The position numbers and the translations under genes were made by a program. The notes beneath the pieces were generated by a model that was not told the origin of the DNA, searched no databases, and saw only the letters and a program-made list of their open reading frames with translations. From a virus (taxonomy: Duplodnaviria; Heunggongvirae; Uroviricota; Caudoviricetes): a stretch of DNA of 7,672 bases. This document shows positions 1-7,633 of the stretch, piece after piece. The number at the start of each line of letters is the position of its first letter. Within the stretch, counting starts at the first letter, position 1. The stretch is from positions 1 through 7,672 of IMG/VR virus record IMGVR_UViG_2693429605_000022; one strand, written 5' to 3'.

Positions 1-52
1 CCGTTTGGCGATATCAAATCTGATGGCACGGTGAAAACGGCTCTCGAAAACC
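1..52. repeat. Inverted repeat: nt 1-52 are the exact reverse complement of 2000-2051 (3' end of the fiber constant region), and the repeat runs off the window edge
   Basis: Direct comparison: reverse complement of GGTTTTCGAGAGCCGTTTTCACCGTGCCATCAGATTTGATATCGCCAAACGG equals nt 1-52. Confidence 0.9.
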
Positions 53-525
53 AAAAAAAAAAGACAAATTCGGCATTACCCGTTGGTGTGCCTGTTCCGT
101 GGCCTTCCGCCACTCCGCCAACGGGGTGGCTAAAATGTAACGGAGCAGTATTTTCTTCTGAAAAGTACCCAAATCTGGCAAAGGCTTACCCAACATTAAA
201 ATTACCAGATTTACGCGGTGAATTTATTCGTGGCTGGGATGATGGGCGCGGGATTGACTCTGGTCGTAACTTATTATCTGCACAGAATGATGCAATTCAG
301 AATATTGTTGGTTCTTTTGGGCGTACCCAGCTTTTTAGAGACGTACTTAGTTCAGGGCCATTTAGTCAACATGGGCAAGTATTATCTACAGGTCTAAAGG
401 AAGCCGAAATTATTGAGGGTTATGGCGCTTATAACTGGACATTCGACGCATCTCGCTCAGTTCGCACAGCATCTGAAACCCGCTCCCGTAACATCGCCTT
501 TAATTATATTGTGAGGGCTGCATGA
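1..525 (+). CDS. Phage side tail fiber protein, 3' portion only (end of the shared constant region plus variable C-terminal cassette A); the 5' part lies upstream of the window
   Basis: Frame 1 is open from nt 1 ([17 protein letters not shown]...) to TGA at 523-525. Nt 1-52 are an exact inverted copy of 2000-2051, encoding the same peptide that ends the constant part of the fiber gene at 1545-2288. The stop overlaps the start of the downstream tfa (ATGA at 522-525), a typical fiber-tfa coupling. Confidence 0.7.
   Translation, partial: PFGDIKSDGTVKTALENQKKKTNSALPVGVPVPWPSATPPTGWLKCNGAVFSSEKYPNLAKAYPTLKLPDLRGEFIRGWDDGRGIDSGRNLLSAQNDAIQNIVGSFGRTQLFRDVLSSGPFSQHGQVLSTGLKEAEIIEGYGAYNWTFDASRSVRTASETRSRNIAFNYIVRAA
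41..66. other. Constant/variable junction of cassette A at the equivalent position; a possible degenerate crossover site in inverted orientation
   Basis: CTCTCGAAAACC AA AAAAAAAAGACA shares the constant-side half-site with site 1 in inverted orientation, but the other half is an A-tract and the central dinucleotide reads AA rather than the TT expected for an inverted partner. Confidence 0.3.
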
Positions 526-1127
526 TAAGTAAAGCTGTATTAAATAATGAACTCATCGCCACAAAGGCCGGAGACATTACCGTTTATAATTATGATGGTG
601 AAACACGGGAATATATTTCCACATCAACTGAATATCTTGCTGTGGGTGTTGGTATCCCGGCATGTTCCTGTTTAGATGCTCCTGGCTCATATAAAGCTGG
701 TTATGCAATTTGCCGTTCTGCAGATTTTAACTCATGGGAATATGTGCCAGACCATCGCGGTGAAATCGTCTATAGCACCGAAACAGGAGAATCAAAAGAA
801 ATCACAGTTCCGGGTGATTACCCTGAAAATACAACCACTATCGCCCCGTTAACGTCATACGATAAATGGGATGGTGAGAAATGGGTGACCGATACTGAGG
901 CACAGCATAACGCCGCAGTAGACGCGGCAGAAGTACGGCGCCAGTCACTGATTGATGCTGCTATGGCTTCCATTAGTCTGATTCAGCTGAAATTGCAGGC
1001 CGGGCGGAAGCTGACGCAGGCAGAAACAACCCGGCTTAACGCTGTGCTGGATTACATTGACGCGGTGACTGCAACAGATACCAGCACCGCGCCGGATGTC
1101 ATCTGGCCTGAACTACCGGAGGCGTAG
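522..1127 (+). CDS. tfa: Tail fiber assembly protein (Tfa chaperone, Mu U / P2 G / e14 TfaE-like), 201 aa, cognate to cassette A
   Basis: ATG at 522 is preceded by GAGGG (513-517) and overlaps the stop of the upstream fiber cassette. The N-terminus MISKAVLNNELIATKAGDITVYNYDGETREY and the C-terminal TSTAPDVIWPELP motif are characteristic of the Tfa family. Confidence 0.85.
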   Translation: MISKAVLNNELIATKAGDITVYNYDGETREYISTSTEYLAVGVGIPACSCLDAPGSYKAGYAICRSADFNSWEYVPDHRGEIVYSTETGESKEITVPGDYPENTTTIAPLTSYDKWDGEKWVTDTEAQHNAAVDAAEVRRQSLIDAAMASISLIQLKLQAGRKLTQAETTRLNAVLDYIDAVTATDTSTAPDVIWPELPEA

Positions 1128-1542
1128 GCCATTCAATATCTGGAGCACTGGAGGTATCAACCAGTTCCAGTGCGTCCAGATAATCCAGCCATAAATTATA
1201 TTGTTCCAGCTCGTAACCTTTCAGACGACCAATAGCAGCTTTGCCAGGCCACTGATGGGTATTGATGTAGGTATTGACTTCTGAAACCAAAGATATCTTT
1301 TTCATTTCAGCCGCCAGCATCTCATCCTCTTTTGAAGGCGGCGGGGAATTAATCCATATTGGCCGTCCTGAACTGTCAGCGCCAATTTCTTTCCCTTCTG
1401 GATGCAGCCCAAGAAATTGCTCATATGTTTCTCTGGTAATTTCAATAACATCATCAGGAAGCGTTCCCGCATCCTCATATTCTGGAAACAATTCTTGCAG
1501 ATAAAAACTTTTACTTGCGGGTGAAAAGAATACTGAGTTCAT
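1099..1542 (-). CDS. tfa: Tail fiber assembly protein (Tfa), 147 aa, cognate to fiber cassette B
   Basis: ATG (1542-1540) lies 2 nt after the TAA stop of the fiber gene at 1545-1547. The C-terminal motif TSSAPDIEWPTPP is the conserved Tfa C-terminus. Its 3' end overlaps the convergent tfa at 522-1127 by 29 nt. Confidence 0.8.
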   Translation of the reverse strand: MNSVFFSPASKSFYLQELFPEYEDAGTLPDDVIEITRETYEQFLGLHPEGKEIGADSSGRPIWINSPPPSKEDEMLAAEMKKISLVSEVNTYINTHQWPGKAAIGRLKGYELEQYNLWLDYLDALELVDTSSAPDIEWPTPPVVQAR

Positions 1543-1544
1543 TC

Positions 1545-2288
1545 TTACCGTCCAATGATTAACGCTGAGACGCTGGTATCTGAAGGAAAGGCTGCATTCA
1601 GTGGTTTGTCGACTTTGAACACAATCGTATTATTCCCCCTGACAGCGGCAAAAGAACAAACCGCCGTCGCGTATGAACCTGTAATATTACTGGATACACC
1701 ACCATAAGCTGTTGTTGATACCAGAGGGATAACGCCCAGCACCTTATTAGGAAATACAAAGGGCAATGTGGCTGTGGCAATATAAGACTTATTAGAACCT
1801 GTAATGGCATAAGCATTATCAGTCATTCCATTCATCGCCACTGGACCGCTTATACTTACAGTAACCATCTGAATGATTAGCCCGTCAGGTTGACGAATCA
1901 CAAAATTTCCATTGCCACCAGTAACCGTCCAGAAAGACATATCAGGGATTTGGTTTTCCCCGTTGCCCACATTTCGTTTTGCCGCTTCTCCCAAACCAAG
2001 GTTTTCGAGAGCCGTTTTCACCGTGCCATCAGATTTGATATCGCCAAACGGATTCTTGCGGCTTAACAGCAGCGCACGAAGCGCGGTAAGCAGCTGGTCA
2101 TGCCGCCCCTTCTCCAGGCTGGCACCGGATGCCTCCACCACGCTGCAGAGTTCTTCCTGCAACATGTCAAAGTAGTCATCATCCAGATCGGTGGCAGGTG
2201 TGCCGGTCTGGGGGTTACCACGGGTAAAACCGTTCTTACCCGCGCCGAACTTATCCTTCTGCGCGGTTTTCGTGTCTATACGATGCAT
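1545..2288 (-). CDS. Phage side tail fiber protein, complete (247 aa): N-terminal constant region (~96 aa, 2288-2000) joined at a hix-like site to variable cassette B (1999-1545)
   Basis: ATG at 2288-2286 lies 3 nt downstream of the stop of the upstream tail gene. The constant part ends ...[17 protein letters not shown], identical to the window start on the other strand. The variable part begins [21 protein letters not shown], closely similar to the start of cassette C (3992-4365). The protein is Gly/Thr/Asn/Ser-rich, typical of fiber tips. Confidence 0.8.
1986..2011. other. Candidate 26-bp hix/gix-like invertase crossover site 1, inside the fiber gene at the constant/variable junction
   Basis: TTCTCCCAAACC AA GGTTTTCGAGAG has imperfect dyad symmetry around a central AA and strongly resembles recalled hixL (TTCTTGAAAACC AA GGTTTTTGATAA). 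The identity with the window-start copy ends exactly at the centre. Confidence 0.6.
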
Positions 2289-2291
2289 GGA

Positions 2292-3971
<1,680 letters not shown>

Positions 3972-3991
3972 ATAAATCACCCTGAATAAAA

Positions 3992-4365
3992 TTACTCACC
4001 AACAGCCCACCAACTGTAATGCATAGATACCGTGTCACTGGTTGATGACGTTCTGTAAGCAGAATTAAAGCCGGTTAACGTAGGGCCTTCTGCAGTCATC
4101 ACGAACCCTCGCCCAGCGCCTAAAGGCGCACCGCCATCACCAGAATGGGTAAGAATGGCGCAGTCCGCTTTTTTAGGGAAAGGGATAGGAAATGTAATCC
4201 TCATTGTTTGCGTCGATAATTTCGGCATAGCCTCGCCTCGACCATATTGCAGAATTTTACCGTTGGGTAATTTCATCCATCCATCACCACTGGCAAAAGA
4301 GGCCATGTCCGGTATCTGATTTTCCCCTGTCCCTACATCCCGTTTTGCCGCTTCTCCCAAACCAA
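3992..4365 (-). other. Silent (start-less) alternative tail fiber C-terminal cassette C, beginning at a hix-like crossover site and ending at TAA 3994-3992
   Basis: Reading the minus strand from the site gives [24 protein letters not shown]..., matching the start of cassette B in frame. About 65 nt (4300-4365) are near-identical to 1935-1999. The extra N-terminal residues in the ORF-track entry 3992..4405 are read-through of the invertase upstream region. Confidence 0.6.
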
Positions 4366-5215: not shown

Positions 5216-6724
5216 TTACATATCTGCATCAGGAGCCAGTGGGTGTCGAAGATAATGTTCCTGAAGAACATCTGCAATTGATTTCAGATTGTCTTCCTTA
5301 ACAATGGAAAGAATGTCACGTCCATTTTTCCAGTCTAATGATATTTTTGTATTTCTTTGCTTCTGATGAAGCAGCAGCTCAAGTGCTTCAGGTTCAAAAT
5401 CTGATGAGGTCCAGAATGAAAAAGTCATTTTTCGGTCACGGTACACATGAATCTGACTGTAGAATTTTCTGATGCGTTGAACTCGTTCGAGCCACTTTTC
5501 GATCATTTCGACTGAAATTAGTCGCTTAACTTCATAGCCTTTACATTCGTAGCACTTAATTTCTGCTTCGCCTCTAAAACCAATCACATCTATTTCAGCC
5601 TTACCTGCCTCGGTACTGATTTGTTTATTCAAGTCCACAGTGCTGACATTTTGGGTTTTCAGTACGATGTGACCAACTAACATTTCAAACATTACGCCTC
5701 TTATATTGATTGCGGCGCCTTCAATCCTCGTAAGTCCTTTAAATAGTTCGTTGATTTTTTCTGGGTTTGCTGCCGCAATAGCACTGGCACGATTAAGAGT
5801 ATTTAATAAACTGGACAGTAGTGCTGAAATGTCTTGACCAAGTAGGTTAGATACTGTTGTAGCCATTACACCAGCTTGTTTCGCAAGGCGAAAGGCTTCT
5901 GGATCAAAACGTTCTGCAATCAGCATAGCTAGAAACGGGCGAGTATTTCGCATATTTCTGCATCGCTGTACTTTCGTGAGATAGGTTTGGATGCTTTTGC
6001 TATCTAAATCATTGTATATGACATCTGCAACAATGAAGCCATTACTCATTTCACCTTTTTGTACTGTTGCTAAAGGCATAATATATGACGGAGCACATAT
6101 GTCCCAATGGTGATGGCTAAATGAAGGCATATTCTGAGAGTTACGGACTTGGACCTTATTAAAGCTGCCAAGGCTATTGTGTTTAATCCAGTCAGCTACA
6201 CCTTTAATGAGAATATCTTCAACCAGCAATTGGTTTCGGACATGTTGGGTATCCGTTACCCCGTTAATATTATTTATGTAAGTAACAAGACAATCCCCCA
6301 AAACGACATCAACTTCCCTACGCAGAACTGAACCTTTAAGCAATTGCGCTTCAAGACGGCTTGACGCAATGTGTCCCTTCAGTTTGTCCGGACTCCCTGA
6401 AACCTTGCTAAAAAGATATGTCGGGATCGCCCCTTGATAAGGGTGGAAAGCGAAAAAGGTGTGAGCATAGACTGTTCTTGCATTTACATGACTTTCAAGC
6501 AATGCAATCCAATATCGACGAGAGTTATAGTCCTTTGTCAGATAGAGAAATGCTTCATTTTTGGGCAAAGAAAAATGAGTAAAACGTTGAACATCACCTC
6601 CAACGCGGGAGATTCGCTGTCTGGCGTTAACTTCTGTTAGGCCATTGGCTATCAGTTTTTCTCTTAAGGCAGATGAGGACATCGGCCCGTAGATATGTAG
6701 AAGTTGTTCTATGGATGGTTTCAT
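5216..6724 (-). CDS. Hypothetical protein, 502 aa, no family recognised; cargo-position gene between invertase and ssrA; possible N-terminal wHTH-like region and C-terminal PD-(D/E)xK-like nuclease motif (tentative)
   Basis: Long uninterrupted ORF in visibly AT-rich DNA (codons rich in AAA/AAT/ATT), convergent with pin. Candidate motif EIDVIGF...(E)AEIK/CYECKGY at about residues 377-395 fits hD...(D/E)xK spacing. No obvious Shine-Dalgarno before the ATG at 6724, so the exact start is uncertain (next Met is residue 15). Confidence 0.8.
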   Translation of the reverse strand: MKPSIEQLLHIYGPMSSSALREKLIANGLTEVNARQRISRVGGDVQRFTHFSLPKNEAFLYLTKDYNSRRYWIALLESHVNARTVYAHTFFAFHPYQGAIPTYLFSKVSGSPDKLKGHIASSRLEAQLLKGSVLRREVDVVLGDCLVTYINNINGVTDTQHVRNQLLVEDILIKGVADWIKHNSLGSFNKVQVRNSQNMPSFSHHHWDICAPSYIMPLATVQKGEMSNGFIVADVIYNDLDSKSIQTYLTKVQRCRNMRNTRPFLAMLIAERFDPEAFRLAKQAGVMATTVSNLLGQDISALLSSLLNTLNRASAIAAANPEKINELFKGLTRIEGAAINIRGVMFEMLVGHIVLKTQNVSTVDLNKQISTEAGKAEIDVIGFRGEAEIKCYECKGYEVKRLISVEMIEKWLERVQRIRKFYSQIHVYRDRKMTFSFWTSSDFEPEALELLLHQKQRNTKISLDWKNGRDILSIVKEDNLKSIADVLQEHYLRHPLAPDADM

Positions 6725-7111
6725 TGAGTGTCACACTGCGCTATTTATAATATAACTACATTAGCGGATGATGAGTTCAAGATTAGTAAGGTTATGTTTT
6801 AACATATTGATAAACATGAATAAAAAATGTGTGTGATGCTTGTTTTTTCAGTGTTTGTCACAGTGCGTTTTTTAATCGATGTTTTTGTGTTAAAAACGTC
6901 CTACTTAGTTAATGTAATTGCACGTTTTATTGCGATTTTTTTTGGCCGCTTAACTTAGTTGTACTTGTTTGCTAGAGAGGTTATTTAAACCAGCTTCGCT
7001 GCCATTGGTCAAATAGGTAATGGTGTTATCTGGTATCCGAAAGTACCAATGAAGGTAAAAAGGAATTCCATCCCATAACACGAAGAGGGATAGCGTGTTG
7101 CCGCAGGTAAT

Positions 7112-7142
7112 AAAAACGAAAAAGCCCGCATTAGCGGGCTTT
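7112..7142 (-). terminator. Rho-independent terminator on the minus strand, downstream of ssrA
   Basis: Minus-strand reading gives a GC-rich hairpin AAAGCCCGC-TAAT-GCGGGCTTT followed by TTTTTCGTTTTT. It lies about 130-160 nt past the mature tmRNA 3' end and upstream of the AT-rich leader of the 502-aa gene. Confidence 0.55.
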
Positions 7143-7270
7143 CATGTCACTTGGGAGCCGCGGCTCCTTTGCGTATCCTTTTTTGTCTCCTCACCGTCTG
7201 GTCGGTGTCCTGCTGAGACTGCTAACTTCCTGTTTTTATTGGTGTTGTCCTTACACCGTCCAATCATGAT

Positions 7271-7633
7271 TGGTGGAGCTGGCGGGAGTTGAACCCGCGT
7301 CCGAAATTCCTACATCCTCGGTACTACATGCTTAGTCAGTCTTTACATTCGCTTGCCAGCTGCGGACGGACACGCCACTAACAAACTAGCCTGATTAAGT
7401 TTTAACGCTTCAACCCCAGGCAGGGCTTCCACGCGATCTCTTTTGGGTTTGACCTCTCTTGATCCCCGTCCTAAGAGCGGAGGCTAGGGAGAGAGGGCTC
7501 TAAGCAGGTTATTAAGCTGCTAAAGCGTAGTTTTCGTCGTTTGCGACTATTTTTTGCGGCTTTTTACGAGGCCAACCGCCCCTCGGCATGCACCTTGGGT
7601 TTCGCAAATCCCGTCGAATCCAGAATCAGCCCC
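7271..7633 (-). ncRNA. ssrA: tmRNA (transfer-messenger RNA, SsrA), complete 363 nt, enterobacterial type
   Basis: Minus strand reads GGGGCTGATTCTGGATTCGACGGGATTTGCGAAACCCAAGGTGCATGCC ... GGTTCAACTCCCGCCAGCTCCACCA. The tag reading frame GCAAACGACGAAAACTACGCTTTAGCAGCTTAA encodes ANDENYALAA plus stop. It matches the E. coli tmRNA as I recall it. Confidence 0.97.

Follow-up and report, generated by a model that had tools for sequence, protein, structure and literature searches.

Several described systems come close to the control region analysed in this study. The control of restriction-modification systems by C proteins and their C boxes is known from PvuII, Esp1396I and AhdI. Repression loops between phased operators are represented by gal OE/OI with HU, lac O1/O3 and deo, and IHF-assisted loops are known as well. 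Enzymes of the FokI and N.BspD6I class have short asymmetric recognition sites, and the active dimer of a FokI-like enzyme requires two sites for its assembly. BrxR and CapW are separate regulators of defence islands, which are of the wHTH type and carry WYL domains. Type IV endonucleases with a winged-helix fusion are reported to be 6mA-dependent and toxic in Dam+ E. coli (PMC11037411). The END nucleases are of the PLD type and thus represent a different family (PMC12191111).

We have analysed a window (the whole stretch of viral DNA, 7,672 nt in length) in which the gene of a 502-aa protein is preceded by two TGTGACA boxes. These boxes are extremely conserved, exclusive to one gene family, fixed in position and orientation and separated by helically phased distances. 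The control region which carries them belongs to a mobile single-gene cassette. It is, in our judgement, fairly likely that the region is a promoter with two operators which is autoregulated by the product of its own gene via a DNA loop; from the comparisons described below, we infer the binder and its binding to the boxes, the start site of transcription and the sign of the regulation. The features of the locus are listed in Table 1.

Table 1 Features of the 502-aa gene, its upstream region and the adjoining ssrA end of the prophage (positions refer to the window)
Feature	Position	Strand	Basis
502-aa cargo gene, uncharacterised Type IIS-like nuclease (predicted)	5216..6724	-	Model, fold similarity
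Proximal 22-bp element TTATAAATAGCGCAGTGTGACA	6729..6750	-	Sequence, cross-locus conservation, information profile
Predicted IHF-consensus site TATCAATATGTTA	6800..6812	-	Perfect match to WATCAANNNNTTR
Distal element TAAAAAACGCACTGTGACA	6856..6874	-	Sequence, cross-locus conservation
AT-rich spacer, specific to the E. coli version of the cassette	6875..7118		Alignment with upstream regions of homologues
Intrinsic terminator, stem GAAAGCCCGC/GCGGGCTTTT followed by a T-run	7105..7143	- (ssrA strand)	Terminator scan, inverted repeat
Phage-borne att homology, last 35 nt of ssrA and 152 bp downstream	7119..7305		TUM11352 repeat, alignment
ssrA (tmRNA), integration target	7271..7633	-	ARAGORN and Rfam RF00023, 295.8 bits

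The original prediction, which described the stretch between positions 6725 and 7111 as a leader, was made without the prophage setting, and the stretch proved to border on an att region, at that end of a prophage which is nearest to ssrA. The same DNA in E. coli TUM11352 forms this end of a prophage of ~40 kb with the gene order integrase, immunity and replication, head, Mu/P2-like tail, Pin invertase, 502-aa gene and ssrA. A direct repeat of 187 bp (92% identity), which is equivalent to the att homology of the window, flanks the TUM11352 prophage on both sides. The free phages LLS, Ayreon and phiNP share this block at attP; it is annotated as 'tmRNA pseudogene / attP' in phage LLS, where it is located between the invertase-side cargo region and the integrase. 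The homology to other E. coli ssrA loci ends at ~7105 (megablast), and other E. coli strains carry different cargo genes in the same slot. The position between the invertase and attP is documented as a cargo position of ssrA-integrating phages. According to this prophage layout, the supposed leader is the upstream region of a cargo gene which occupies the invertase-to-attP slot of an ssrA-integrating prophage. The terminator on the minus strand (7143-7120 and the T-run) separates ssrA from the control region and insulates the cargo gene from ssrA read-through.

The description of the stretch as non-coding, AT-rich and located 5' of the 502-aa gene was found to be correct (31-32% GC, longest ORFs of 40-43 aa). 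The GC content is 0.31-0.32 across positions 6700-6999 versus 0.45-0.53 in the flanking DNA. With tblastn, none of the small ORFs (43, 43 and 40 aa) was matched significantly in the upstream regions of seven homologues, and the small-protein reading was dropped since they are not conserved in related loci. The stretch does not form one unit within its proposed limits. The conserved control DNA covers only positions 6725-6874; the spacer beyond it shows little or no conservation in comparison with the upstream regions of other homologues, and the att/ssrA-terminator region begins at ~7105-7119. In one strain, IS2 is inserted at ~6972. The original prediction regarded the AT-rich sequence as typical of H-NS-bound promoters of acquired genes; what the sequence itself shows in this respect is its low GC content of 0.31-0.32. 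The AT-richness of the whole stretch is not a conserved property because the surroundings are GC-rich in GC-rich hosts, where the element itself stays AT-rich.

A motif search of the window located TGTCACACTGCG at 6729-6740 and TGTCACAGTGCG, an 11/12 match to this proximal copy, at 6856-6867, both on the plus strand; the 12-nt motif thus occurs twice in direct orientation, exactly at the coordinates that had been given for it. No other copy of the 12-mer was present in the window even with up to two mismatches, and no further TGTGACA/TGTCACA was found in the 7,672 bases beyond the two boxes. Taken alone, the 11/12 repeat is not significant and lies within chance: a direct 12-mer pair which equalled or bettered it was obtained in 93 of 300 dinucleotide shuffles of positions 6700-7111, and about one occurrence of the motif with up to two mismatches is expected per window. 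The repeat is longer than the 12-mer, with 16 of 19 positions matching as TAAAWAVCGCASTGTGACA and 23 of 29 between 6719-6747 and 6846-6874. The latter match was reached by none of 300 dinucleotide shuffles. The decisive evidence that the repeat is real and not a product of chance is its conservation in other loci.

The homologues of the 502-aa protein, which formed 92 clusters, were collected together with their DNA. The scan of contigs gave only distant relatives, and near relatives were obtained by exact-protein look-ups. The first comparison set consisted of the E. coli window, a Salmonella element, a Logan contig and a Morganella prophage, with proteins 82-86% identical to that of the window. 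The alignment showed that both copies of the motif are invariant in this set, although the mobile elements differ and the surrounding DNA has diverged. The Salmonella element carries ArdC and DUF1281 genes, and its homologue of the 502-aa gene is located downstream of the ArdC-containing block; in Morganella, the homologue lies directly downstream of a tail-fibre gene and is flanked on the other side by a 270-aa gene and int. On the gene's strand, the proximal copy reads GTAGTTrTATTATAAATAGmGCAGTGTGACA across the set, followed by 3-4 nt and ATG, and the distal copy reads AAAAAC(G/A)CACTGTGACAA. Homologues with ~60% identity (from Pantoea and others) have the same two-copy pattern, and the Salmonella, Morganella and Pantoea loci show no variation in the distal element.

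The conservation of the proximal element reaches much further. Among loci picked by protein similarity only, TTATAAATAGCGCAGTGTGACA was matched in 19-22 of its 22 bases in all 17 full-length ones, including the distant loci from Victivallis, Hydrogenovibrio, Pyrinomonadaceae, Lentisphaerae, Halanaerobacter, Butyrivibrio, Myxococcus and Henriciella, whose proteins are only 25-40% identical to that of the window. Its carriers belong to the Proteobacteria, Lentisphaerae, Acidobacteria, Firmicutes and Myxococcota. In three incomplete copies of the gene (L011, L012 and L014), the DNA upstream of the matching portion does not contain the element; L011 and L012 lack the N-terminal part. A scan with the exact 21-mer TATAAATWGCGCAGTGTGACA yielded 107 metagenome stretches and one viral contig, and a gene of the family was found directly 3' of the 21-mer in 72 of the 81 loci read. 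The nine exceptions comprise five loci cut by a contig end and four orphan elements without an ORF downstream; these four elements without a gene count against our model. The median identity of the proteins encoded behind the exact 21-mers to the protein of the window is 33%. The operator-type pair proposed in the original prediction can thus be retained as a pair of candidate sites, since both copies are shared between genera and the proximal one even between phyla. Missing conservation of the motif in related loci had been named among the grounds for refuting that proposal, and this ground is decisively removed by the conservation found.

The distal TGTGACA box (6856-6862) is situated 127 bp (~12 helical turns) upstream of the proximal one, in the same direction and with an A-run before it. 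Among 72 unique upstream regions, 58 contain an exact distal TGTGACA at a distance of 108-151 bp upstream, always in direct orientation, and the inverted sequence TGTCACA was found in the distal position in none of them. The exact distal box is absent from 14 of the 72 regions, which counts against the model. The box is asymmetric and its central G is invariant. In the information profile of unique upstream regions (70 sequences), the conserved columns are those of the 22-bp element and of a second TGTGACA with a weak C and an A-run before it, and there is no other informative column between or around the boxes.

The distances between the boxes cluster near 110, 121, 130, 141 and 151 bp. With 52 independent-looking spacers (no shared 8-mers, although the sequences are not fully independent), the best period within the range of 5-20 bp was 10.5 bp (R = 0.46). 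This value was attained at 10.5 bp by none of 3000 uniform-random sets and at any period by 5 of 3000. A spacing with a period of 10.5 bp is the signature of two sites which face the same side of the DNA helix. The predicted IHF site lies approximately midway between the boxes, 43-45 nt after the distal box. A perfect IHF consensus is present at the same offset in five Enterobacterales lineages, i.e. the window, Salmonella (L015), L020, Morganella (L016) and Pantoea (L021), and in 10 of the 52 independent-looking upstream regions overall. The proximal site with its 22 conserved bp and the distal site with 7 bp and an A-run are, as judged from this difference, not equivalent, and their unequal conservation is a weak point of the two-operator model. 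Part of the proximal 22 bp may have a role other than binding the 502-aa protein.

A gap of 4 nt separates the proximal element from the ATG of the 502-aa gene, and no Shine-Dalgarno sequence is present. The element reads as a −10-like hexamer TATAAA, a GC-rich (GCGC) discriminator, a CA dinucleotide as the probable start site and the TGTGACA box (6729-6735, minus strand). The TATAAA sequence (6744-6749, minus strand), which matches TATAAT in 5 of 6 positions, precedes the ATG by ~20 nt and does not vary within the family. We found no TTGACA-like enrichment at the required offset (16-18 bp upstream of the −10 hexamer) in 71 unique upstream regions; only a weak A-run occurs ~38-41 nt upstream of the proposed start. 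As there is no conserved −35 motif, the promoter assignment depends on the −10-like hexamer and its position. A consensus promoter scanner reported no minus-strand sigma-70 promoter in the stretch, and on the plus strand it reported TTGAGT-16-TATAAT. The plus-strand TATAAT at 6746-6751, which had been noted in the original prediction, is indeed present, but as a reverse complement it coincides with part of the element conserved on the minus strand. Both the final T of this TATAAT and the −35 hexamer that goes with it (TTGAGT) fall in non-conserved positions; the conserved reading is therefore that on the gene's strand, and a divergent plus-strand promoter was rejected as the conserved feature for this reason. 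Such a promoter might nevertheless operate at the E. coli locus itself.

A leader or 5' UTR of ~390 nt, as previously supposed, is unlikely with TATAAA and the proximal box so close to the ATG. This proximity indicates that the transcribed leader probably has a length of ~13-20 nt. In most loci, the start codon is located 2-27 nt past the proximal box (3-4 nt in enterics, where no Shine-Dalgarno sequence is found), which fits an operator overlapping the start site. The Shine-Dalgarno sequence is absent in many members of the family. Some of the annotated starts, e.g. that of P0011, lie too far downstream.

The AlphaFold2 model of the 502-aa protein (pLDDT 90, pTM 0.85) consists of an N-terminal winged helix, a second winged-helix-like module, a middle alpha/beta domain and a C-terminal PD-(D/E)xK domain. 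The product is thus predicted to contain a sequence-specific DNA-binding domain, the N-terminal winged helix, with a conserved recognition helix. The canonical winged helix comprises residues 5-62 of the model and the recognition helix approximately residues 31-40 (...ARQRISR). This helix is one of the best-conserved portions of the protein, and 20 aligned sequences show no variation at A34, R35, Q36, R37, S39 and R40. Across 56 sequences with identities down to 24%, R40, D379 and E393 are invariant and A34 nearly so. The PD-(D/E)xK residues D379, E393 and K395 are conserved. The fold is similar to those of N.BspD6I, FokI and AF1548, the predicted recognition domain is separate from the PD-(D/E)xK cleavage domain, and by its architecture the protein models as a Type IIS-like nuclease. 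No significant family match for the protein was found in Pfam, NCBIfam and PHROGs; PADLOC gave nothing significant, only a weak match to LmuA, and a profile search of the PDB gave only a marginal match to Card1. No methyltransferase gene is located next to the gene in the 12 lineages examined. The neighbourhoods examined differ in every lineage and contain no conserved neighbouring or partner gene. Since, moreover, no other column of the upstream regions is informative, the gene product is the only conserved candidate for the binder.

The tie of the boxes to one gene family, their fixed position, their phasing and the occurrence in hosts without a common dedicated regulator are most simply read as a promoter-operator module co-evolving with the DNA-binding domain of the product. 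Transcription would start at the CA dinucleotide, which would give a leader of ~13 nt without a Shine-Dalgarno sequence in the window. The TGTGACA operator would then occupy about +3 to +9 and the distal operator would be positioned 12 helical turns upstream. The gene's own product would bind both boxes through its N-terminal winged helix, and the bound molecules would bridge them and thus form a DNA loop, possibly with the help of IHF bending the intervening DNA in enterics. The loop would occlude the promoter and the start site and so shut the promoter. The outcome would be a tight negative autoregulation of a potentially toxic nuclease which has no partner methyltransferase.

The boxes might also be the cognate recognition sites of the nuclease, used for binding and cleavage or for sensing, with regulation being secondary and the phased pair serving as a storage or assembly platform or as a self-marker. 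The Type IIS-like architecture indicated by the fold, the 7-bp asymmetric site typical of the Type IIS class, the two direct and helically phased copies and the lack of a methyltransferase in all neighbourhoods examined would agree with this assumption. However, neither TGTGACA nor TGTCACA is depleted in 60 of the family's own coding sequences (3 and 1 occurrences versus 1.7 and 3.3 expected), and a host genome without protection would contain a 7-mer hundreds of times. The fixed position relative to the start codon and the −10-like hexamer points to a role in expression. We therefore consider this explanation unlikely; it overlaps with autoregulation by the gene product instead of excluding it. 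A bolder and equally doubtful combination of both is that TGTGACA is the cognate recognition sequence of an undescribed Type IIS-like family without methyltransferases, whose phased copies combine the functions of a repression loop and of a parking site or dosage sensor. If this were true, few promoter-operator modules of mobile defence-type genes would be as deeply conserved as the 22-bp element, and the system would be switched on by titration of the protein away from it, e.g. by foreign DNA which enters the cell or replicates.

Binding of the boxes by a regulator other than the gene product, whether a global one of the host or one of the mobile element, would fit the generic idea of operator sites in the original prediction. 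The IHF consensus between the boxes in enterics and the TGTGA sequence, which we take to resemble a CRP half-site, could be quoted in its favour. On inspection by eye, however, neither copy can be read as a full CRP or LexA site, and no partner gene is conserved in neighbourhoods that differ from lineage to lineage. Since the element spans five groups at the phylum level, which have no common dedicated host regulator, its phylogenetic spread makes a host regulator quite improbable, and our judgement of this explanation as a whole is the same.

A function in RNA, with the element acting at the 5' end of the mRNA as a translational operator or as part of an sRNA, is very unlikely. The proximal element does abut the start codon in a family where many members have no Shine-Dalgarno sequence, and it would be contained in the RNA if transcription started upstream of TATAAA. 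The small RNA or structured 5' UTR that had been suggested for the stretch nevertheless found no backing: no Rfam family was detected at the gathering and E-value thresholds, the sub-threshold matches being confined to the terminator, and the fold of positions 6690-6880 is no better than that of shuffled sequences (z = −1.1). An sRNA or riboswitch-like leader was rejected on these grounds. Moreover, no conserved sequence from which a structure could be built is present between the boxes, and the pairing of the distal with the proximal copy in the fold of the window is not kept in distant loci. The phasing of the distal box at 10.5 bp, the helical repeat of DNA, is a property of DNA.

The IHF consensus inside the stretch and its place beside the att homology, at the end of the prophage nearest to ssrA, might suggest that integrase, Xis or IHF binds the repeats as arm-type sites for prophage attachment, but this is hardly conceivable. 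The boxes are 410-540 bp away from the crossover region in the 3' end of ssrA. Neither the int-side arm nor phages LLS, Ayreon and phiNP, which have only positions 7119-7305 in common with the window, contain them. The boxes accompany the cargo gene also where its upstream region faces no attachment site, e.g. in Morganella and in the Salmonella element, and arm-type sites are refuted by these findings. A chance match in AT-rich DNA, which the shuffles and the expected count would allow for the 12-mer, is refuted practically beyond doubt by the 23/29 extension and by the conservation of both boxes at fixed positions across phyla.

In our search of the literature, neither the element nor the RefSeq accessions turned up in any paper, and TGTGACA was nowhere described as an autoregulatory operator. 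The closest single-gene nucleases in print belong to other families and do not match, namely the PLD-type END nucleases (PMC12191111) and the Type IV enzymes with a winged-helix fusion, which are Dam-dependent (PMC11037411). The kind of mechanism, i.e. autoregulatory phased operators controlling a mobile nuclease, is known, whereas the element and the depth of its conservation appear to be undescribed, as does the union of regulator and nuclease in a single protein. It is unusual that a 22-bp non-coding element stays nearly unchanged while the identity of the protein falls to 25-40% across phyla. This points to a tightly co-evolving pair of DNA and protein at the heart of an uncharacterised family of ~500-aa nucleases, which is widespread on mobile elements (92 protein clusters and more than 100 metagenome loci). 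Negative autoregulation would be a likely explanation for the safety of a solitary, potentially toxic restriction-like enzyme in horizontal transfer. The locus also provides an experimental handle consisting of a defined candidate binding site, predictions based on phasing and corrections of start codons, and the 21-mer can serve as a sequence tag for finding members of the family and fixing their mis-annotated starts.

As in the C-box systems, short boxes are located here at the promoter of a mobile nuclease system, and distal and proximal sites, as we suppose for this locus, time and limit the expression of the nuclease. The boxes of both are conserved across unrelated hosts because the box and the binding domain travel together. 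In contrast to the C-box systems, there is no separate small C gene, the putative DNA-binding domain being fused to the nuclease; upstream regions contain no conserved small ORF, and the locus is therefore not assigned to this group. The repeats are asymmetric, direct and ~127 bp apart, whereas C boxes are adjacent palindromes, and the methyltransferase that belongs to those systems is absent from every neighbourhood examined here. The 502-aa protein likewise differs from Type IIS enzymes and nickases such as FokI and N.BspD6I, as it shows no family membership at the sequence level and has no methyltransferase. Sites locked to the start of the own gene, as found here, are not a described feature of Type IIS genes.

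The phased repression loops resemble this control region in having two operators ~110-150 bp apart with a spacing quantised at the helical repeat, and in the consensus site of a bending protein between the operators, which is found here in enterics. They differ from it in that the operators of gal, lac and deo are palindromes bound by dimers, whereas direct repeats of a 7-bp box are present here, where looping is suggested by the spacing statistics alone. A winged helix fused to or associated with the nuclease of a mobile defence-type gene without a methyltransferase is shared with the Type IV fusions and with BrxR/CapW. In contrast to the present protein, BrxR and CapW are separate regulators with a WYL domain, and PADLOC found no significant match here. 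Whereas the 6mA-dependent winged-helix enzymes are reported to be toxic in Dam+ E. coli (PMC11037411), the present gene resides in E. coli and Salmonella. Finally, the gene is placed between the Pin/Fin invertase and attP like the genes in the moron slots of the ssrA-integrating phages LLS, Ayreon and phiNP, with its own control region and a terminator as a shield against ssrA read-through. In contrast to the content of these slots, the same cassette together with its control region occurs also outside the group of ssrA phages and outside phages altogether.

The att homology of the phage copy is unusually long; it extends over 187 bp and comprises the ssrA 3′ end and 152 bp of the downstream DNA, including the terminator. 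The ssrA gene, which encodes tmRNA, acquires its 3′ end and terminator from the phage upon integration. The same homology block is common to the free phages LLS, Ayreon and phiNP.

Coordinates of the features in the window and in two compared loci, L003 (E. coli TUM11352 prophage) and L138
Feature	Window	L003	L138
Phage copy of att region	7119-7305	7009-7195	3501-3691
T(T/G)ATGTAATT followed by GATTTTTTT	6909-6944	7206-7230	
Direct repeat TTGTCTCCTCACCGTC / TTGTCCTTACACCGTC	7183-7198 and 7245-7260		
Second cargo cluster		7345-9215	
Tail-fibre/ymfQ block	~1-2903		
IS3 fragment	~2920-3836		
Identity to e14-like region	69-3836		
isrC match	2920-3042 (+)		

The motif T(T/G)ATGTAATT followed by GATTTTTTT was found in two places: one copy lies inside the spacer of the control region upstream of the 502-aa gene, and the other, in L003, directly adjoins the ssrA fragment in the integrase-side prophage arm. 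It could be an arm-type site for Int/Xis or what remains of an att arm, or it may have arisen by chance. The direct repeat TTGTCTCCTCACCGTC / TTGTCCTTACACCGTC (12/16 match), located within the att homology near the ssrA end, is a candidate site for integrase, either of the arm or of the core-proximal type.

In E. coli TUM11352, three genes between the att repeat and int form a second cargo cluster, located to the integrase side of attP. One of them encodes a protein with a STAS-like domain, and the cluster may be a further accessory or defence module. E. coli FT130 carries the same prophage end as the window, with 28 nt from the 3′ end of ssrA. There, this prophage end borders not a full ssrA but the gene for an AAA ATPase and the pao/yagU region, an arrangement that points to a rearrangement between att copies of the ssrA type.

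The annotated N-termini of some homologues of the 502-aa protein are too short, e.g. in L027/L028 (protein P0011); in L027, the called start lies 84 nt downstream of the conserved promoter-like element and a proper ATG. Such mis-called starts within the family can be corrected with the element as a guide. The exact 21-mer of the element also occurs without a family gene or any downstream ORF in four metagenome loci (L037, L049, L077 and L092), and these orphan copies may be relics or decoys. The copies in L037 and L049 sit amid small phage-like genes on the opposite strand; in both, TGTCACACT is also present in inverted orientation, 10 nt ahead of TATAAAT.

In the left part of the window, at 1-4350, the tail-fibre/ymfQ block is inverted with respect to the intact TUM11352 prophage and is followed by the IS3 fragment, and the segment 69-3836 is 100% identical to an e14-like region of other strains. 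On these grounds, the prophage end within the window is rearranged or mosaic. The strong Rfam match to isrC (RF01387; 150 bits, E 1.5e-37) is positioned at the left end of the IS3-family element, the transposase of which starts at ~2924 according to the comparison with NZ_CP180607.1. Because of this coincidence, the apparent sRNA match may simply represent an IS end.
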